A DNA stretch of 64,000 bases from a virus. The translations under genes were made by a program, and so were the position numbers. The stretch is taken from the IMG/VR virus record IMGVR_UViG_3300037606_000123, positions 32,001 to 96,000 of that record, one strand, 5' to 3'. Shown piece after piece: positions 1 to 35,434 of the stretch. Numbering within the stretch: position 1 is the first letter of the stretch; each line of letters starts with the position of its first letter. The notes under the pieces are model-generated. The model was not told where the DNA came from. It saw only the letters and a program-made list of their open reading frames with translations, and did no database searches.

Positions 1-220
1 ACAGAATTATTACTTTTAAATTGAAATTTATATTTTTCATTTCATTAAATTATGTTTTCCTACTCATAAGGCTTTTCAGAATACTCCCCGTTTTTTAAGT
101 GTTTTCTGGTCTTCACTTTTTAAAATTATGTATTCATTAGATTACAAATAATTAATTTTACAAAACAAATATACATATAATATTTTAATAATAAAAACAA
201 TTATTAATATTTATTTTTTG

Positions 221-953: not shown

Positions 954-1261
954 TACACCAGACGGGACTTGAACCCGTACGCCTTTTAGGGGCAAGGGAT
1001 TTTCATACCACTATAGTTTTCACTACCAACGGACTGTTGTTTGTGGTCTGGACTATCTCTCAATCATGTCGTATAAATACGATTTAGACCACTCCCGTTT
1101 AGTCTCTACACGTTCACCACTATTTTCATAGTTTAGCTTCGCTCGGGATTGCCATTTTAAAGGGTTCCCCGAATTTGAGAGTGTATGCATTTATATCTTT
1201 TCAAATATAACGCTCAATTTTTATTTAAGTCCCTCATGTCTACCAATTCCATCACCGGTGC
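954..1261 (-). tRNA. trnL: tRNA-Leu(TAA) interrupted by a group I intron
   Basis: 5' exon GCACCGG..AGGGACTT, 3' exon AAAATCCCT..GTTCAAGTCCCGTCTGGTGTA; joining restores loop CT-TAA-AA. Confidence 0.93.
1004..1226 (-). mobile_element. Group I intron (223 nt, trnL-UAA type, no ORF)
   Basis: Inserted after U34, ends in G; core motifs CTCAAATTCGGGGAA, GGCAATCCCGAGC, GTAGAGACT, GATAGTCC resemble the cyanobacterial/plastid trnL intron. Confidence 0.9.
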
Positions 1262-1369
1262 ATTTGTTATAAACTATCCTCAAATACTTCACGGTTTATT
1301 ATCCGTTTCATTATATTGTGTCCTATAACATTTTTTATTTAATCCAATACGTCAAAGATCGTTTATCTT

Positions 1370-3210: not shown

Positions 3211-3810
3211 ATGTCAACTACAGAACAATTATTAGCAGATTTAACCACAGCAACAACTTTATTAACAAATGCAGTTGCCGTACAACAAATAGCAGTAAAT
3301 GATGCAGTTTCACAATTTGCTTCTGTAATTAATAAAGTTAATACAGAATTGAATTATGTAGATAATACATCAGATGCAAACAAATCTGTTAGTAATGCAA
3401 CAACAGAAGCATTATCTTTTAAACAGAACACACTTGTGTCTGGCGTAAACATAAGTACGGTCAACGGTTTATCTATATTAGAAGGTCAACCATTAGTAAT
3501 AGAAAGAAGTGCAACATCACTCGTAAGTCTTGAATACGATAATAGAGATACTTTAAGATTAGAACCTTTGTTACCAAGCATATTAGATGATTCTGTTGTT
3601 GTTGAAGGTATTGGTTTATTAATGTTTGTGACAACACAGCTTGAACCAGATGATGATGAAACATGTTTTACGTCATTGATAGGACAATGGTTATTATCTG
3701 TTCCTGCACCAGATTTATTAGACGCTTGGGCAACCGATGAAAGACATTTTAACGATGAACTTGACGAAGATGAAGTAACAAGATTATCAACAAGTTTTGT
3801 TGGTTTATAA
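3211..3810 (+). CDS. Tail-fibre cassette protein (199 aa)
   Basis: N-terminal coiled segment then a fibre-like KQNTLVSGVNISTVNG motif. Confidence 0.6.
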   Translation: MSTTEQLLADLTTATTLLTNAVAVQQIAVNDAVSQFASVINKVNTELNYVDNTSDANKSVSNATTEALSFKQNTLVSGVNISTVNGLSILEGQPLVIERSATSLVSLEYDNRDTLRLEPLLPSILDDSVVVEGIGLLMFVTTQLEPDDDETCFTSLIGQWLLSVPAPDLLDAWATDERHFNDELDEDEVTRLSTSFVGL

Positions 3811-3833
3811 AAAAAAAATATAAAAATATAAAA

Positions 3834-5915
3834 ATGAGATTATCAACAAGAAGATTATTAACAGCAGTTAAATCGGGATTAGTCCTTGGTCCAGAATTAG
3901 AAACAAGGTTGTTAGATGCAGGTGTTAAATCTGGATTTTTAGAAGCACTTTCAATGCGTAGTGAAACTAAAAGTTTGGCTGCTAATCCGGTAGCAATAAC
4001 GGCTATTGTAGCAAGTCCGATAGCAACAGATTCAGTTTTTGGAGCAGCTAGTATAAATAATTCAACAGCTGCACAAGCAATGGCTGCTAGTCCTGTAGCA
4101 ATGCTTAATGTAACGCTTAACTTGCCAACTTTAACTAAAATTATAAACAATCAGGTGGCGTGGAATATATACTTACAAAGCCCTTATGCTGTAGATAATA
4201 TCGGTTATGCTGCTGCTGTTTTTGCTGGATTAAATTTAATAACATATCCAGATAGAACTTTTGTATTTGCAGACACTGTAGCAATGGCACAAATCATAGC
4301 TAGTACTAATGCAATTAGATCTGTTATTGAAGATGATGATTTAGTTTTAAGAACATCAGTCAATAGTATTGGTATGGAGTTAGTAGCTACAAATGCAACC
4401 GCTTTAAGTTATATAACAAATTCTCAAAGAGGTATGAGTGCTTGTGCAAACAGTGCTATAGCTATGTTTGAATTATCTTCAAAGTCATTGGCTATAGTTG
4501 CTATATCTAATAGTAAAATAGCAGTAGATACAATATATGCTAATAGTGTTGCAAGAGCTTCTTACAAAGCAAGTGCATTCTTTGTAGCAAATTTAAAAAA
4601 CACAATTGCAAACCTAGCAGGAATTAACCCATTGTCCTTTCCAACAATTGACGATATTATAAATAATAATATTGCATTAACTGCGGTTAACGCAAATGAA
4701 GGTGCATCAGAAGCATTATCTTCAAGTAGTGCTGCAATGCTAACATTAGGGACAAGTGCTAATCTTTCTATTGTAACAGGTAATACAGTTATTATGGCAG
4801 CCTTGGCAAGTAATAATACTGCAATGGTTAATATAGCTACAAGTACAAACTTTGCACTTGTGAAAGGCAATGCAGTAATAATGACTGCTCTTGCAGGTAA
4901 TTCAGCAGGCGTAACAGCGTTATCTACCCACGCTAATTTAACACTTGCCATTAATGACCCTATTGGAATGGCTAAATTATCAGCTAATTCTATATCAGTT
5001 GGAATCTTAGTAGGAGCTACTTCAACAGTTGGAGTAAGAGATATTATATTTAACTCTGAAACAGCGATGGTATCAGTGTCTAACAATACTGTATCAATCA
5101 ATGCTATTAATGCAAACGCTACAAGATGGACGGAATTTAAAGAAAGCCCTTATTATGAAGACAATGCTTTTGCAATAACTTATAATCTTGCAGGTATAAC
5201 TCTTATAATGTCAACTTTTACTCAAATGATAGCTAAAGCATCAGCTTTAACATTAGTAAATGCAAACGCAGGAGCATCAGAAGTACTAGCAACTAATTCA
5301 GATGCAATGCTTACCCTTGCTACAAGTGCAAACTTTGGTATAGTAGTTGGAAATAGTTTAATTATGACAGGATTCGTTACAAATGCAGCAGCACTTACAG
5401 CGCTTGGAGGACATTCAAATATTAATGTAGCAATAGGAAATGCTGTAGCAATTGGATTAATAGTTAATTCAGCACCAGCAATGGCAAGTTATGTTGCAAA
5501 TAATACAATCCTTGCATCACTGTTTGCTAGTTCAGTAGCTAAAACAGCTATATTTACTTCTACTGTAACAGTAGCAGCATTAGCTGCATCAGCATCAGCT
5601 GTTACATATTTGAAATCTATCCAAACATTATTATTATCATCAACTACCCCAACAGCTGGGAATTGGGTTTCATTTGGAACTGGAGTACCAGCTAAAATAT
5701 TAATGGTAACTTACAGACAACAGGGAATTGGTGCAATTGAAACACCAATTAGATTCCGTTCCCCAGAGGGTCCACAATTAAGTATGGTAGGTACAGCAGC
5801 AATTGGTGATCAGATTGGTAGAACACATATTGGTGCTTATAGTAACTTAGAATTTAATACTACTGCTATTAGTGCAATCACAGGATCAGGTATTGGTTAC
5901 ATAAGCATGCTATAA
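3834..5915 (+). CDS. Ala-rich repetitive 693-aa protein, putative virion/fibre protein
   Basis: Three related modules containing (F/L)AG(L/I) plus many short amphipathic Ala-rich repeats. Confidence 0.7.
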   Translation: MRLSTRRLLTAVKSGLVLGPELETRLLDAGVKSGFLEALSMRSETKSLAANPVAITAIVASPIATDSVFGAASINNSTAAQAMAASPVAMLNVTLNLPTLTKIINNQVAWNIYLQSPYAVDNIGYAAAVFAGLNLITYPDRTFVFADTVAMAQIIASTNAIRSVIEDDDLVLRTSVNSIGMELVATNATALSYITNSQRGMSACANSAIAMFELSSKSLAIVAISNSKIAVDTIYANSVARASYKASAFFVANLKNTIANLAGINPLSFPTIDDIINNNIALTAVNANEGASEALSSSSAAMLTLGTSANLSIVTGNTVIMAALASNNTAMVNIATSTNFALVKGNAVIMTALAGNSAGVTALSTHANLTLAINDPIGMAKLSANSISVGILVGATSTVGVRDIIFNSETAMVSVSNNTVSINAINANATRWTEFKESPYYEDNAFAITYNLAGITLIMSTFTQMIAKASALTLVNANAGASEVLATNSDAMLTLATSANFGIVVGNSLIMTGFVTNAAALTALGGHSNINVAIGNAVAIGLIVNSAPAMASYVANNTILASLFASSVAKTAIFTSTVTVAALAASASAVTYLKSIQTLLLSSTTPTAGNWVSFGTGVPAKILMVTYRQQGIGAIETPIRFRSPEGPQLSMVGTAAIGDQIGRTHIGAYSNLEFNTTAISAITGSGIGYISML

Positions 5916-12958: not shown

Positions 12959-13145
12959 AATGCAAATATAATAATAATAAATTAAAAAATAGCAAAATTT
13001 GGTAATATTCTTGTACTACCATATTTCAAAACACATATCTCAAATTTTTGTAGCATGTGTATTACTTTTTATTTATATAGAAATAAAAAACCGACTAAAA
13101 TACGTTTAGCCGGTTTATCTATGAATGTTAAAACATTCGTGCCAC

Positions 13146-13540
13146 GGTGGAGGTGGAGGGATTCGAACCCCCGTTTTTATAAGAAAATTCATTATTTTCT
13201 ACATGTTTATTTATCTTATTCACAAGATAACAAAATATTTATTTTTTGTTATAACAAACATTTTATTCAATTTTAAAGTTTGAATAAAAAACAACTTTTT
13301 GTTTACTGATTGGTTAATCCTTTCGGATCGACTTAAGCTGTTGCTAATTCAAAAGCTGTCTCAGTTACTACAGCTGTAGAAGAAACTTCTACTGAACCAC
13401 CTAAGTCAGAAACTAATTTGTTAAAAGAAGTTTCGTTTTTAAAGTTTGCATTTATTTTTTAGTACTTTATTTAAGTGTATTTACAAAAACACTACATGCT
13501 TATATTGATCATACATTACAAATCAAATCCAAACACCCCC
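13146..13540 (-). ncRNA. ssrA: tmRNA; tag ORF 13449-13333 encodes ANFKNETSFNKLVSDLGGSVEVSSTAVVTETAFELATA
   Basis: 5' GGGGGTG pairs with 3' CACCTCC-A with G3.U70; T-arm GGGGG-TTCGAAT-CCCTC; resume context ATAAAT-GCA. Confidence 0.9.
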
Positions 13541-29510: not shown

Positions 29511-30218
29511 ATGCATCAAAAAAATTTAACACCAATACAAGATGGTGAAATTGTTAAATTACAAAAACCTTTAAATAATACATTTTCTGATCATGTTAAA
29601 AATAATGATGGAATTGTATTGGCCACATGCGATAATTGTAAAGCTGAAAATGTTAATATTGAAGATCACATATGTAAAACATTAGTTACATTACCTAATC
29701 CATCAGATATGGTTACAACTATAGAAAATTTTAAAAAAATAATAAAAGAAAATATGTTTACAACAAGAAAAGAATTTATTAATTCATTAAATGAAAATTC
29801 AAACAATACAGAATTAAAAACATTAGAAGACAATATGTATTTTGTGATTAAATCATCGGAATTACGAATTACTAAAAATTCATATAATGATGGTGAAACT
29901 GGTGAAACTACACACAGTGATACTGGTTTAGAAAAAAAACAATATAAAAACGTACAAGAAATTTTAGATCAAATAGATAGTCGTCTTACAAGTGATAGTT
30001 TAACTATTATGGATGATAGAATTATTTGTAGTTATTTAGGTGGAATGTCTGATGATAATAATTATGTTGCAACTGATTCATTAAAATACAATCAATGGAA
30101 AAATGATGAATTAGAATTGTACACATTTGATTATGATATAGTTATTGAAATTGTAGTTAAAACTAATTATACATCTCAAGATTTATCTAATTTATTAGGT
30201 ATTGCAAATTATGATTAA
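29511..30218 (+). CDS. Hypothetical protein with internal capsid-targeting-like motifs
   Basis: MVTTIENFKKIIKEN-MFTTRKEFINSLNEN. Confidence 0.7.
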   Translation: MHQKNLTPIQDGEIVKLQKPLNNTFSDHVKNNDGIVLATCDNCKAENVNIEDHICKTLVTLPNPSDMVTTIENFKKIIKENMFTTRKEFINSLNENSNNTELKTLEDNMYFVIKSSELRITKNSYNDGETGETTHSDTGLEKKQYKNVQEILDQIDSRLTSDSLTIMDDRIICSYLGGMSDDNNYVATDSLKYNQWKNDELELYTFDYDIVIEIVVKTNYTSQDLSNLLGIANYD

Positions 30219-30236
30219 TAAATAAATAAATTAGAT

Positions 30237-30890
30237 ATGAAAGAATATATATTTTTAAGATATGCAAATCAACCTAATCCACAAGTTACTGAGGTATTGG
30301 TAAATAGTATAGTTAAACAAGGTGCAAAACCTTTTTTTACATCATTACCTGGTGTTATGATTACATCGTTTAAAAGTGATTTAACTGAAAGTGAAATACG
30401 TGGAAAATTAGATATTTTAGATATTTTATATGATATAGTAGAAAAGAAAAATATTGTTGTAGATAGTCCTACAAGTACTAATACAACAACAACAAATAGT
30501 AAAGAAGAATTACAACGTGAAATGGATGCAGCAGTAGAATCTGAAGATTATGAAAAAGCTGCAACATTAAGAAATAAGATTGAGCAATTATATGGTCCAA
30601 ATGAATCATTAATTTTAAATTTTAATTTTTTTAAATACCTTAAAGAAAATATGTCAACAGAATTATCAGTTGAACGTAAGATTGAAATATTAGCTGAATT
30701 ATCTGAATGGTCTGGTGGTTATGATCCAACAGAAATGTCGTTTGATCCTAATTATAGTGATGATAGTGATGATAATGAAACACTTAATCAATACATTGAA
30801 AATTATATTTTACAAGATGAAGTAGAATTAGTTACAGATTGGTTTGTTGATTTACAGAATGGTGCTGATGATATAAAAAAATATCAATAA
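30237..30890 (+). CDS. Protein with UvrB/UvrC (UVR) coiled-coil motif
   Basis: LQREMDAAVESEDYEKAATLRNKI. Confidence 0.7.
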   Translation: MKEYIFLRYANQPNPQVTEVLVNSIVKQGAKPFFTSLPGVMITSFKSDLTESEIRGKLDILDILYDIVEKKNIVVDSPTSTNTTTTNSKEELQREMDAAVESEDYEKAATLRNKIEQLYGPNESLILNFNFFKYLKENMSTELSVERKIEILAELSEWSGGYDPTEMSFDPNYSDDSDDNETLNQYIENYILQDEVELVTDWFVDLQNGADDIKKYQ

Positions 30891-30892
30891 TT

Positions 30893-31648
30893 ATGATAAC
30901 AAATATTAATGAGTTTAAAGTATACTTAAATGAAAATGTTGATATGTCAACATTTTCAATCATACAAAGAAGTGATGGAATAATATCTAAATATGGTCAA
31001 GAAAATAATTTAGATATAGATGATTGTATTGAAAATTTAATATATTATAATATTATATCTGATAATTATACAGAAGACGAATTACGTATATTATTAAATA
31101 ATTTAAAATTAAATCAAACACACACATTTGGTTCTAGATGGACACAAACAGAAGTCACAAAAACACATTCTAATGATACATTATTAGAAAATGTACGTAT
31201 TCCACAAGAAGTTGAATTAAAGTTTGGTGTGAAGTATAAAAACATCAATTGGAATGATTTAAATCTTATTAATGTTGGTGTCTATGGTGATACTGTATTT
31301 TACGGTATTCAAATACCAGGGGAGAATAATAAATACAATAAAGGAATTATTGTTGATCTTAAAAATGAAGATGAATTAAATCGTATTGATATAATGATGG
31401 ATTTTAATTTACAAGGTTTAGGATTAGGATATAAAATTTATAAAAAAATTATAGAACAAACTGGACACATTTATTCATTATTTAATAAAAGAGTTAATGA
31501 TGATGCTATTCCTAAAATTTGGGAAAAATTAAAAAACGATTCTGATATTGAAGTACATTCAAACAAAGATGGTGAAATAGCAATTTGGAAAAACATGAAT
31601 GATAATGAATTAAAAAATAATTTAATTTCTAAAATAAATAACAAATAA
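30893..31648 (+). CDS. Putative internal head protein with GNAT-like segment
   Basis: N-terminal MITNINEFKVYLNE; LQGLGLGYKIY. Confidence 0.65.
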   Translation: MITNINEFKVYLNENVDMSTFSIIQRSDGIISKYGQENNLDIDDCIENLIYYNIISDNYTEDELRILLNNLKLNQTHTFGSRWTQTEVTKTHSNDTLLENVRIPQEVELKFGVKYKNINWNDLNLINVGVYGDTVFYGIQIPGENNKYNKGIIVDLKNEDELNRIDIMMDFNLQGLGLGYKIYKKIIEQTGHIYSLFNKRVNDDAIPKIWEKLKNDSDIEVHSNKDGEIAIWKNMNDNELKNNLISKINNK

Positions 31649-31733
31649 TTTTTATATTAAATTAATTATTAATATCTTTGTAAAGAATTTAATAAAGGAG
31701 TAAACTTTTTTAATATATAACAATATAATAAAC

Positions 31734-31811
31734 ATGAAAAGAATTTTAAACATACAAGCAGTTATAGGTCAAGCCGGGAGAAATCTACCGACTCAGAATT
31801 TGTATTGTTAA
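31734..31811 (+). promoter_or_regulatory. Leader peptide MKRILNIQAVIGQAGRNLPTQNLYC (25 aa), putative attenuator
   Basis: Read manually; GACTCAG (31790-31796) is complementary to the terminator 5' arm CTGAGTC (31840-31846). Confidence 0.75.
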
Positions 31812-31834
31812 TTTTTAAATATTTAACTACTACT

Positions 31835-31867
31835 AAAACCTGAGTCAATTTGATTCAGGTTTTTTTT
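31835..31867 (+). terminator. Attenuator terminator before tRNA-Gly/Ile/Ala
   Basis: AAAACCTGAGTC-AATTT-GATTCAGGTTTT plus further T, 9 nt before tRNA-Gly. Confidence 0.85.
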
Positions 31868-31876
31868 ATTTATAAT

Positions 31877-31947
31877 GCAAGATATAGCTTAATGATAAAG
31901 CGCCACACTTCCAATGTGGAGACGGAGTTTGATTCTCATATTTTGCT
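31877..31947 (+). tRNA. trnG: tRNA-Gly(TCC), atypical acceptor/T stems
   Basis: CCACA-CTTCCAA-TGTGG anticodon arm; GCAAGATA/TATTTTGC can form 8 bp; weak T-stem. Confidence 0.75.
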
Positions 31948-31961
31948 CTAAATTATAATAT

Positions 31962-32033
31962 GCACCATTAATTCAATGGTAGAGTAAATGTCTTATATAC
32001 ATTCGGTCATAGGTTCGATTCCTATATGGTGCA
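31962..32033 (+). tRNA. trnI: tRNA-Ile(TAT)
   Basis: GCACCAT/ATGGTGC acceptor, AATGT-CTTATAT-ACATT, ATAGG-TTCGATT-CCTAT. Confidence 0.9.
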
Positions 32034-32049
32034 CAAATAAAAAAATAAC

Positions 32050-32122
32050 GGGTTGATGTTGAAGATGGCTATCATAACGGTTTTGCAAATCGTTGTCCTG
32101 GGTTCAAGTCCCAGTCGATCCA
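32050..32122 (+). tRNA. trnA: tRNA-Ala(TGC)
   Basis: ACGGT-TTTGCAA-ATCGT; G3.U70 in GGGTTGA/TCGATCC. Confidence 0.88.
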
Positions 32123-32170
32123 AAATGTTTTTATTATTTAATATATAATAAAAACAAATATAAATTAAAC

Positions 32171-32563
32171 ATGAATCAAAGATATTTTAAAATAACAGCA
32201 AATGATGTAAATGACGCAAAACAATTAAAAACAATATTACTAACAAAAAAGTTTTATCCAGAAACAACATCAACACCACCATTACCAGCAACAGTAACTG
32301 GAGGGTTTGATTACAGAAAATTGTTTCTTGTTATAGAAATTCAAAATGATGGTATTATTGTATTGACTAGATCAGAATATACTGTTGCACAATTTAATGT
32401 AAATGTAATACCAACATTAGATTGGACAACAAGATATAATTTATCTTTAGCACCAACAATTACATCATTACCAGAATATACAGAATATCGTAATGGTAAA
32501 AATACAACAACTTCAATACATGCGTTTTTAAACTATGATTACACTTTAACAAATAATAAATAA
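32171..32563 (+). CDS. Hypothetical protein (start revised to MNQRYF)
   Basis: The track start overlaps tRNA-Ala; ATG at 32171 has an A-rich context. Confidence 0.65.
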   Translation: MNQRYFKITANDVNDAKQLKTILLTKKFYPETTSTPPLPATVTGGFDYRKLFLVIEIQNDGIIVLTRSEYTVAQFNVNVIPTLDWTTRYNLSLAPTITSLPEYTEYRNGKNTTTSIHAFLNYDYTLTNNK

Positions 32564-32568
32564 TTAAA

Positions 32569-32625
32569 ATGAAAAAAACAAATAAATACCAGCAAAATAA
32601 CTTACAACAATTATATAATTGTTGA
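32569..32625 (+). promoter_or_regulatory. Gln-rich leader peptide MKKTNKYQQNNLQQLYNC (18 aa), putative attenuator
   Basis: CAG CAA..CAA CAA codons; TTGACAGA (32622-32629) is complementary to TCTGTTAA (32658-32665). Confidence 0.82.
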
Positions 32626-32652
32626 CAGAAATTGTATTATTAAAATTTTTAC

Positions 32653-32686
32653 AAAAGTCTGTTAATATTAATTAACAGACTTTTTT
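32653..32686 (+). terminator. Attenuator terminator directly before tRNA-Gln
   Basis: AAAAGTCTGTTAAT-ATTA-ATTAACAGACTTTTTT. Confidence 0.88.
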
Positions 32687-32688
32687 AT

Positions 32689-32760
32689 TGTCCTATAGTG
32701 AAATTGGCATCACACGTCCCTTTGAAGGATGTATTTCAGGTTCGAATCCTGATTGGACAA
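32689..32760 (+). tRNA. trnQ: tRNA-Gln(TTG)
   Basis: TGTCCTA/TTGGACA, CGTCC-CTTTGAA-GGATG, TCAGG-TTCGAAT-CCTGA. Confidence 0.92.
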
Positions 32761-32784
32761 CAACAAAAACACTAAAACACTAAA

Positions 32785-33081
32785 ATGAAATTAATTAAAA
32801 CAAATAAAAATAATAATTTATATGAAATTGTATATTATTATATTCTAAGAAAAAATATTTATATTTTTACAGATAAACCAAATGATTTAATGATAATGCG
32901 AAAACATAAAGTAAGTTGTAATTATGATGAATTATCTTCATTATATACATTAACTAGTTTTGATAGTAGTAATAATTTAATAATCATAGACACAAATTTA
33001 ATTGATGCTATAGATAGATATAAAGAAGCATTTAGATTATCATTAAGTATTAAAAATATTTATAGTATAAAAACACAATAA
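32785..33081 (+). CDS. Hypothetical protein
   Basis: Intact ORF after tRNA-Gln. Confidence 0.55.
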   Translation: MKLIKTNKNNNLYEIVYYYILRKNIYIFTDKPNDLMIMRKHKVSCNYDELSSLYTLTSFDSSNNLIIIDTNLIDAIDRYKEAFRLSLSIKNIYSIKTQ

Positions 33082-34146: not shown

Positions 34147-35007
34147 TTGAATAGTATGGAAAATATAACATGTTTAAAACATAAACCCTATGATAATTTT
34201 AAGGTGTACCATCCAGATGGCACATTAATGTTTTTTTGTTCACATAGAAAAGTTAATTGGTATGTTAAAAATAATTTAGGTATTTTTTTAAATGATAAAG
34301 AATTAAAATTAACTTTTATACCTGGTGGATATGGTGATCCAATATCAATATTAAAAGGTAGAAGTAATGCTTGTGTTGTTAATAATTCAATTAACGATTT
34401 AACTAAACACCACGTTGTTCCTACACAATTTAGAAAACATTTCAAATTAAAATATAAAGATAAAAATTCATTTGATTTATGTGTTTTAAATAGAAAAATA
34501 CATGATGAATATGAATTACATGCAAATGAATTTAAAGATATATTATTAACTGATATTATTAATATTGATGATATTGATATTAATATATCATGGTATACAG
34601 CAAAAACAATTTATAATACAATAATAAAACATTTTGATAAAATTCCACCGTCAAAACAAGTATATTTACAATTGAAATTTGATGGTTTATGTGATAAATA
34701 TAACTTTGATATTGATAAATTTAAAAATGAATTTTCTCCATATAGTACAAATAATAATAAAAAAATAATAAAACAAGTAGGGACAGAAAATTTAATTGTA
34801 CTTTGGAAATTACATTTTTTAAAATATGCTCAACCTAAATTTTTACCGGATTGGTGGAAACCTAATTTATTAAAAATTATTAATAGAACAACCAGTAAAA
34901 ATATATGTAAAACAGAATTAAAAGAAATTGACATGGTAAAAAATAAAAAATTATTTAAATTAATATTAAAATATAACTTAGATGAAATCGCCAGTTTATA
35001 CATATAA
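34147..35007 (+). CDS. HNH-like nuclease resembling the EXD2 C-terminal domain
   Basis: PDGTLMFFCSHRKVNWY, NACVV, TKHHVVPTQFRKHF, HDEYE. Confidence 0.55.
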   Translation: MNSMENITCLKHKPYDNFKVYHPDGTLMFFCSHRKVNWYVKNNLGIFLNDKELKLTFIPGGYGDPISILKGRSNACVVNNSINDLTKHHVVPTQFRKHFKLKYKDKNSFDLCVLNRKIHDEYELHANEFKDILLTDIINIDDIDINISWYTAKTIYNTIIKHFDKIPPSKQVYLQLKFDGLCDKYNFDIDKFKNEFSPYSTNNNKKIIKQVGTENLIVLWKLHFLKYAQPKFLPDWWKPNLLKIINRTTSKNICKTELKEIDMVKNKKLFKLILKYNLDEIASLYI

Positions 35008-35434
35008 AAAAGCAAATTACACGTACAATATACATGATACTTATACAGCAGGTATTATGTTAGAGGGGTGGGAAGTTAAAGCATTAGATTATCATAATGG
35101 TGATATTAATGTTAGTTATTGTACATTTAAAGGTAAAAACTTTATTTTATGTAATTGTATTATAAAACCAGATATTAAGCATGTGATTGATATTAAAACT
35201 ATTTCAGATAAACAAGTACAAGAAAGAAAATTATTATTAAATAAATCTGAAATTATAAAAATTAAATCTAAAATACAAATAAAAGGTTATACATGTATAC
35301 CATTAAAATTATATAGAAACAATAATGGGTTATGGAAATTAGATATTGCTTTAGTTACTGGAAAATCTAATTATGATAAAAGAAACACATTAAAAGAAAA
35401 AGATATTAAAAGAGATATAGATCGTAACATTTAA
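34982..35434 (+). CDS. smpB: SsrA-binding protein SmpB
   Basis: KKANYTY, TAGIMLEGWEVK, RKLLLNKSEI, GYTCIPLKLY, GKSNYDKR. Confidence 0.93.
   Translation: MKSPVYTYKKANYTYNIHDTYTAGIMLEGWEVKALDYHNGDINVSYCTFKGKNFILCNCIIKPDIKHVIDIKTISDKQVQERKLLLNKSEIIKIKSKIQIKGYTCIPLKLYRNNNGLWKLDIALVTGKSNYDKRNTLKEKDIKRDIDRNI

Follow-up and report, generated by a model that had tools for sequence, protein, structure and literature searches.

Leader-peptide attenuators control amino-acid operons, as in the case of trpL, hisL, leuL and pheL and of the multivalent thrL and ilvL. The pheST attenuator of E. coli, with its pheM leader, is a cellular one that governs a synthetase in response to a single amino acid. T-box riboswitches work without an ORF, by direct binding of uncharged tRNA. 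To our knowledge, the regulation of phage tRNA genes, and the reason why they are kept, is largely unknown. The long array of tRNA genes in Anabaena sp. PCC 7120 was found to be inducible, via direct repeats that overlap with the -10 box, together with a putative repressor (PMC8421152). A full-text search, with most subscription journals outside its scope, revealed no published account of leader-peptide attenuation of tRNA genes. Here, we describe a phage locus that, with a probability of roughly 0.8, functions as a ribosome-mediated (leader-peptide) transcription attenuator gating a Gly(UCC)-Ile(UAU)-Ala(UGC) tRNA operon, as judged from sequence comparison and modelled RNA folds. The mechanism would be the classical leader-peptide one, while the regulated target and the control logic would be new.

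The analysed stretch of 64,000 nucleotides (hereafter the window) corresponds to positions 32001-96000 within an IMG/VR virus record of 123 kb (G000), for which CheckV gives a completeness of 31%. The phage has a G+C content of ~23%, and the record contains 10 tRNA genes in addition to a tmRNA and an SmpB gene. Both halves of trans-translation are present in the phage: the tmRNA (13145-13540, minus strand) carries the tag ETAFELATA and is preceded by the same promoter motif as described below, while the SmpB protein is encoded at 34982-35434 on the plus strand (Pfam PF01668, E = 1.6e-39). A Shine-Dalgarno-like sequence is present in only 4 of the 114 long ORFs of the record. Start codons lie in A/T-rich surroundings, often with very short leaders, 5-14 nt downstream of a TATATAA motif, which suggests that the mRNAs are leaderless or near-leaderless. 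The paucity of Shine-Dalgarno sequences and the TAnnTTTG boxes found upstream of genes suggest a Bacteroidota-like host. Codons ATA (43.6 per 1000 codons), CAA, GCA and GGA are heavily used by the phage, hence its tRNAs serve a real demand; the leader contains both GCC and GGG, which the phage uses very rarely (1.1 and 2.1 per 1000 codons, respectively). Two runs, both salt-lake DNA metagenomes and one of them probably the origin of this DNA, matched positions 31650-32800 of the window, and no run recorded as RNA did so; in the leader, the two runs showed neither informative variants nor joints.

The leader ORF (31734-31811, plus strand) consists of 25 codons and a TAA stop, with the ATG at 31734 and the TAA at 31809-31811, and encodes MKRILNIQAVIGQAGRNLPTQNLYC. 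It lacks a Shine-Dalgarno sequence, as is normal for this phage. Codons 7-15 (31752-31778) read ATA CAA GCA GTT ATA GGT CAA GCC GGG and form the putative regulatory block, corresponding to Ile(ATA) Gln Ala Val Ile(ATA) Gly Gln Ala Gly. Three tRNA genes follow on the same strand: tRNA-Gly(UCC) at 31877-31948 (Rfam tRNA, 50 bits), tRNA-Ile(UAU) at 31962-32034 (Rfam, 66.6 bits) and tRNA-Ala(UGC) at 32050-32122 (Rfam, 49.5 bits), each also called by ARAGORN. The first-pass annotation had described a leader ORF of 25 residues ahead of this trio, the same nine codons and a perfect 7-bp GACTCAG/CTGAGTC pairing downstream of them, all of which were recovered here. It had further matched the ATA, Ala and Gly codons of the leader to the trio. 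This holds at the level of amino acids; under strict wobble rules the three tRNAs read only the two ATA codons, GCA and GGG, while GGT and GCC match by amino acid only.

Seven of the 24 leader residues mirror the tRNA trio (10/24 when Gln is counted). In a simulation of random 24-codon peptides using phage codon usage, a 9-codon window with at least 8/9 I/Q/A/G residues arises with P = 4.3e-4, and one with at least 6 I/A/G residues with p = 0.017. The single-locus statistics are modest (p about 0.02 for the antiterminator helix described below and about 4e-4 for the codon match), being suggestive rather than compelling. The genes immediately on either side of the leader locus received no functional assignment from PHROGs or Pfam.

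A strong intrinsic terminator separates the leader from the tRNA genes. This is a 13-bp hairpin (31835-31847 pairing with 31851-31863) followed by a T8 tract, with an energy of about -14 to -15 kcal/mol. The distance between the T-run and tRNA-Gly is only 9 nt, leaving no room for a separate promoter, and hence the tRNA trio can be made only by read-through of the terminator. Upstream of the leader, a conserved phage promoter-like motif (TAAACTTTTTTAATATATAAC, then TATAAT) is located at 31701-31729 on the plus strand. Relatives have the same motif in front of their leaders and in front of tRNA-Met genes without a leader; it is also found ahead of the tmRNA gene and of several protein genes, and a copy with 76% identity lies before a further small ORF (window position 1845, minus strand). 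A possible host-type (Bacteroidota-like) -7 box, TAnnTTTG (TATCTTTG), can be read at 31673-31680 on the plus strand; in relatives, a full TTTG-N19-TAnnTTTG occupies this position, with the phage promoter motif following 20-30 nt downstream. No other terminator was found between 31648 and 31835, therefore transcripts of the upstream operon either end at the hairpin or read through it. The hairpin thus also meets read-in transcripts, which is compatible with attenuation.

Four regions, all on the plus strand, can be distinguished in the leader RNA. In RNA that is not being translated, region 1 (31757-31769) is predicted to pair with 31798-31809 within a long 5' hairpin that extends from 31741 to 31824. 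Region 2, the putative antiterminator strand GACTCAG (31790-31796), is located 12 nt past codon 15 and 38 nt past the start of codon 7, and is complementary to 31840-31846. Its end lies 11 nt upstream of the stop codon, a spacing also seen in four homologous leaders (W01, W02, G001 and L082) and thus in 5/8 of the leader family described below. Region 3 is the terminator 5' arm (31835-31847), which includes CTGAGTC at 31840-31846, and region 4 (31851-31867) consists of the terminator 3' arm (31851-31863) together with the T8 tract (31860-31867).

RNA folding was used to follow these regions as the ribosome position changes. The untranslated leader RNA is predicted to form the long, imperfect 5' hairpin (31741-31824) and the terminator, with a fold energy of -10.6 kcal/mol for 31734-31834. 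For nascent RNA extending up to the terminator loop, the minimum-energy fold is the antiterminator GACUCAG:CUGAGUC (-13.5 kcal/mol for 31779-31849), its helix closing three inner helices. When a ribosome is masked with its A site at codons 7-15, the best nascent fold is again the antiterminator (31790-96:31840-46, -13.5 to -9.8 kcal/mol). When the mask is placed at the stop codon, the antiterminator is impossible and the terminator has no competitor. In silico, an antiterminator that excludes the terminator is hence freed by a stall and blocked by a ribosome at the stop, and the masked folds behave in the model like the trp attenuator. The terminator is thermodynamically stronger than the antiterminator (-17.0 versus -13.5 kcal/mol). 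Full-length RNA therefore favours the terminator, and the choice must be kinetic, as in classical attenuators. The best duplex between the leader and the terminator 5' arm has an energy of -12.2 kcal/mol, compared to -6.3 ± 1.7 kcal/mol for 300 dinucleotide shuffles (p = 0.017), with an antiterminator core of only 7 bp at this locus. RNAduplex proposed an alternative antiterminator in three relatives, GGCGCGGG, corresponding to the Gly-Ala-Gly codons. This pairing is weak (-8 kcal/mol) and missing from the G000 locus, and the segment 11 nt before the stop was therefore preferred.

A second unit is located directly downstream. Its leader ORF (32569-32625, plus strand) encodes MKKTNKYQQNNLQQLYNC, with four Gln in 17 codons (P = 1.2e-3 for at least 4 Gln of 17). 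Region 1 of this unit (CAACAATT, 32605-32612, plus strand) contains the CAA CAA codons 13-14 and pairs with 32617-32624, while region 2 (32620-32629, plus strand), itself overlapping the stop codon, forms a 10-bp antiterminator with the terminator arm at 32658-67. The terminator (32653-32686, plus strand) has a 14-bp stem and a T tract that ends 2 nt before tRNA-Gln(UUG) (32689-32761, plus strand, ARAGORN). As modelled, the arrangement is the textbook four-region attenuator layout. The leaders found before Gln arrays in relatives are MTTTQQIQQQQINQTD and MTTSFQQQQQQQINRTD. The Gln leader begins 5 nt past the stop of a 130-codon ORF (32171-32563) and has no promoter of its own directly upstream; given this short distance, it is probably reached by read-through from the first unit. 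Such read-through would provide a reason for the two CAA codons in the first leader. The segment that follows region 2, AGAA.TTGTATT.TTAA, is found in both units, and in the Gln unit it lies past the stop codon. The first-pass annotation had pointed out a likeness between the leader peptide ends, LYC* and LYNC*. The resemblance exists, but as the shared segment follows the Gln-unit stop codon, it is probably a likeness at the RNA level rather than a peptide motif.

A third unit is found on the minus strand, where a leader encoding MKNINKILTLTISMCTILLCTKKTMG (1815-1735) has the same promoter motif upstream. Its terminator (1712-1676, minus strand) lies upstream of Leu/Ile (then Thr/Cys/Met) tRNA genes, and 17 of the 25 leader residues (68%) are L, I, T, C or M (p = 5e-5). 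This is a weaker case: the antiterminator CTATGG:CCATAG is weak, and a 76-codon ORF separates the terminator from the tRNAs. A tRNA-Leu(UAA) gene at about 962-1262 (minus strand) is split by a group I intron in the anticodon loop (Rfam Intron_gpI at 1028-1236, 71.9 bits) and was not called by ARAGORN. Two odd tRNA-like genes of 123 and 89 nt are located at 605-727 and 815-903 on the same strand, one of which was given a two-base anticodon by ARAGORN. Just downstream of the minus-strand tRNA cluster, a match to the Rfam DUF805 RNA motif (RF03081, 70.8 bits) is found at 53-121, minus strand.

Relatives of the locus were reached via tRNA-anchored DNA matches and pattern scans; the flanking proteins (encoded at 30893-31648 and 32171-32563) had no matches in IMG/VR. 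Eight Ile/Gly leaders (G000, W01, W02, G001, G002, L066, L082 and L103) align from the ATG on. An open frame of 25-28 codons is kept in all eight, with the core N-I-x-(A/V)-x-I-x-G-x-G, and in each case the leader is followed by a terminator and then by Ile(UAU)/Gly tRNAs. Conservation of the leader in relatives, which the first-pass annotation had proposed as a check, is thus borne out in seven contigs besides G000. In close relatives, conservation extends to C-terminal tails, WLSYVM being one example.

The pairing between regions 2 and 3 was compared by script across these leaders, as MAFFT places the G000 terminator arms one base out of register with those of the other sequences. The pairs are GACTCAG:CTGAGTC in G000, TGGCTG:CAGTCA in W01, W02 and L082, AGACTG:CAGTCT in G001 and GACTG:CAGTC in L066. 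The position and complementarity of the antiterminator appear to be kept despite sequence change, within a set of only eight members and with helices of just 5-7 bp in the relatives. In G000, the terminator 3' arm, the third strand involved, has changed in step. The closest homologues have a weak helix (about -7.4 kcal/mol), one of whose 6 bp is a G-U pair. Separately, G001 and G002 (L027, L030) were found to contain, as the first gene behind the terminator and within the 100 nt that follow it, an Ile(UAU)-like tRNA with the anticodon loop CTTATAC and a long insertion. It was missed by ARAGORN and foretold by the leader.

To place the locus in a wider family, we used a detector that takes the longest ATG ORF of 12-60 codons ending no more than 80 nt before a hairpin and T-run, the hairpin itself lying no more than 140 nt before a tRNA. 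The detector is blind to tRNA identity. Besides G000, it was applied to four related phages, LR745206.1 and LR756502.1 (634 and 642 kb), reached by DNA matches, and two IMG/VR contigs (436 and 152 kb), reached by pattern scans, and yielded 25 units in the five genomes. The four related huge phages account for 23 of these, each consisting of a promoter, an ORF of 16-38 codons, a terminator and a tRNA array. The leader classes mirror their own arrays: His/Phe/Trp/Lys, Arg/Ser, Glu/Tyr, Ile/Gly, Asn/Leu/Val/Thr and Gln/Pro/Asp. For example, MTTNSTHKNFSKSHKWFSNQSFGTESVLSLN precedes a His/Phe/Trp/Lys array, MKTINNTSKSSSRSSSMSEIRLYS an Arg/Ser array, MNTITNIASYESYYEEGNLVRRNNYVVM a Glu/Tyr array, MTTMNLNMTMNLTLNVVNITLCNIRPTEGSDLFREIVM an Asn/Arg/Leu/Val/Ile/Thr array, MKTFKMNITQVNPQPQDQDPGRMANYVFTIS a Gln/Asp/Pro array and MKNLNNISIAVIGNGAGAIREWLSYGI an Ile(UAU)/Gly array, while MTTSFQQQQQQQINRTD precedes an array of four tRNA-Gln genes. 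Unrelated phage contigs display this design too, with leaders that differ, and 67-89% of the leader residues are mirrored in L042, L048 and L065. Many tRNA-rich phage contigs that share a tRNA-Gly 17-mer contain no leader/terminator unit under the detector criteria; the design is common, not universal. In LR756502.1 (L005), an ORF of ~208 codons is located between tRNA-Gly genes at 3213-3838, with the 17-nt direct repeat GGAAAACATTAAACCCG on either side, and resembles an insertion of the homing-endonuclease type into the tRNA array.

In each of the related genomes, the true leader-to-array pairing was found to rank top of all permutations (1/5040, 1/720, 1/120 and 1/120), both for amino acids and for wobble-readable codons; related units are homologous, and therefore not independent trials. 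The mirror is specific to the reading frame, with a score of 0.40 in frame compared to 0.19 and 0.15 in the other two frames. Complementarity between leader and terminator arm exceeds that of shuffles at p <= 0.05 in 12 of the 25 units, with 1.25 expected. The antiterminator of the Asn/Leu class reproduces the terminator 3' arm perfectly over 8-12 nt. The permutation test, the frame-specific mirror, the apparently kept complementarity and the masked folds all support the attenuator that the first-pass annotation had proposed. It is this comparative evidence that, at the level of sequence, would decide the case for attenuation; the locus alone would not.

We considered whether translation of the leader might regulate the tRNAs by another route, either through protection of the precursor from Rho or RNases, or through nascent-peptide arrest. 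tRNA precursors are untranslated and so exposed to Rho, the antiterminator helices are short in several units, and the conserved C-terminal tails could be arrest peptides. Neither route needs a strong intrinsic terminator after each leader, nor the complementarity to the terminator arm detected in 12/25 units, while competition between hairpins needs both. We therefore regard this explanation as unlikely. A further possibility, which we regard as distinctly unlikely, is that the small ORF, with a promoter and a terminator to itself, is a separate gene for a micro-protein that has its own function, the tRNAs being made by constitutive, leaky read-through. The promoter-ORF-terminator cassette is indeed self-contained, the same promoter precedes the small minus-strand ORF at 1815-1735, which looks hydrophobic, and the conservation of tails such as WLSYVM in close relatives would suit a functional peptide. 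However, such a gene leaves unexplained why seven leader classes mirror their own arrays, why leader sequences (e.g. those of the Gln leaders) diverge freely while composition is kept, and why the complementarity of an ORF segment to the terminator arm is maintained. Finally, the absence of another terminator between 31648 and 31835 and the modest single-locus statistics could be taken to mean that the hairpin merely terminates the upstream operon (29511-31648) and that the 25-codon ORF is a chance, untranslated frame, a scenario which the first-pass annotation had itself raised, but this is very improbable given the conserved promoter-like motif between operon and ORF, the frame kept open at 25-28 codons in eight diverged contigs (a 25-codon open frame being itself uncommon at 23% G+C), the frame-specific mirror, and the fact that a terminator 9 nt before a promoterless tRNA operon would silence that operon.

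What is shown here is the anatomy of the sequence, its statistics, its conservation in relatives and a switch in silico; where transcription begins, that the leader is translated, that ribosomes stall on it and which way the control runs are inferred. Transcription would start from the promoter-like motif at 31701-31729, or read in from the upstream operon, and a ribosome would translate the 25-codon leader. Fast decoding of codons 7-15 would bring the ribosome to the stop codon at 31809, where it would cover region 2 as well as the helices behind it. With region 2 covered, the terminator (31835-31867) would form and a transcript of ~135-140 nt would be released. If charged tRNA-Ile (for ATA), tRNA-Ala, tRNA-Gly or tRNA-Gln is scarce, the ribosome would instead stall within codons 7-15 and leave region 2 free to pair with the emerging terminator 5' arm, allowing the polymerase to enter the tRNA genes. 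In the absence of translation, region 1 would sequester the region-2 side, leading to termination. The outcome would be a feedback loop in which tRNA supply tracks demand. Starvation for amino acids, a condition that additional tRNA cannot cure, would trigger such a device just as well.

If this is correct, phages gauge decoding speed codon by codon and top up only those tRNAs that are scarce. This would connect phage tRNAs, in a testable way, with codon-usage mismatch and with tRNA-targeting host defences. The leaders could also serve as compact natural sensors of specific tRNA availability, reusable as reporters, and as an annotation aid that foretells downstream tRNAs, including odd ones missed by a tRNA finder. 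More tentatively, and with considerable doubt, one may imagine a genome-wide, demand-driven network of tRNA supply in which every phage tRNA unit is located behind its own codon-matched attenuator and the gates are chained, the first leader carrying the CAA codons of the downstream Gln unit. Together with tmRNA and SmpB, this network would sense codon-specific decoding failure, including that caused by tRNA depletion or cleavage by host defences, and would supply replacement tRNAs at the very moment of a host attack on the tRNA pool.

Comparison to known systems places the locus closest to classical attenuators. As in the Anabaena array, the nearest published case found of inducible extra tRNAs, a supernumerary tRNA set would be switched on under impaired translation, yet attenuat-, leader and terminator are all absent from the text of the paper describing that array (PMC8421152). 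In a permissive Rfam scan, positions 31600-32800 matched no T-box, cis-regulatory or leader family and gave only tRNAs and sub-threshold noise. The proposed antitermination is nonetheless keyed to tRNA status, as it is in T-box riboswitches, which tune tRNA-charging genes. With pheST, the locus would share a leader-peptide attenuator placed over a component of the translation apparatus and responding to charged tRNA. The likeness to amino-acid operon attenuators extends to the short ORF with regulatory codons, the predicted, mutually exclusive 1:2, 2:3 and 3:4 pairings and the intrinsic terminator before the regulated genes. As in those operons, the ribosome position would decide the outcome, and several amino acids would be sensed, as is the case for thr and ilvGMEDA. 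In contrast to them, the element is encoded by a phage and lacks a Shine-Dalgarno sequence, its 5' UTR is probably very short, and its targets would not be biosynthetic enzymes but the tRNAs that decode the regulatory codons. As the regulated genes are the tRNAs for the regulatory codons themselves, the loop would control tRNA supply, thus extending the trp attenuator paradigm from amino-acid supply to tRNA supply.
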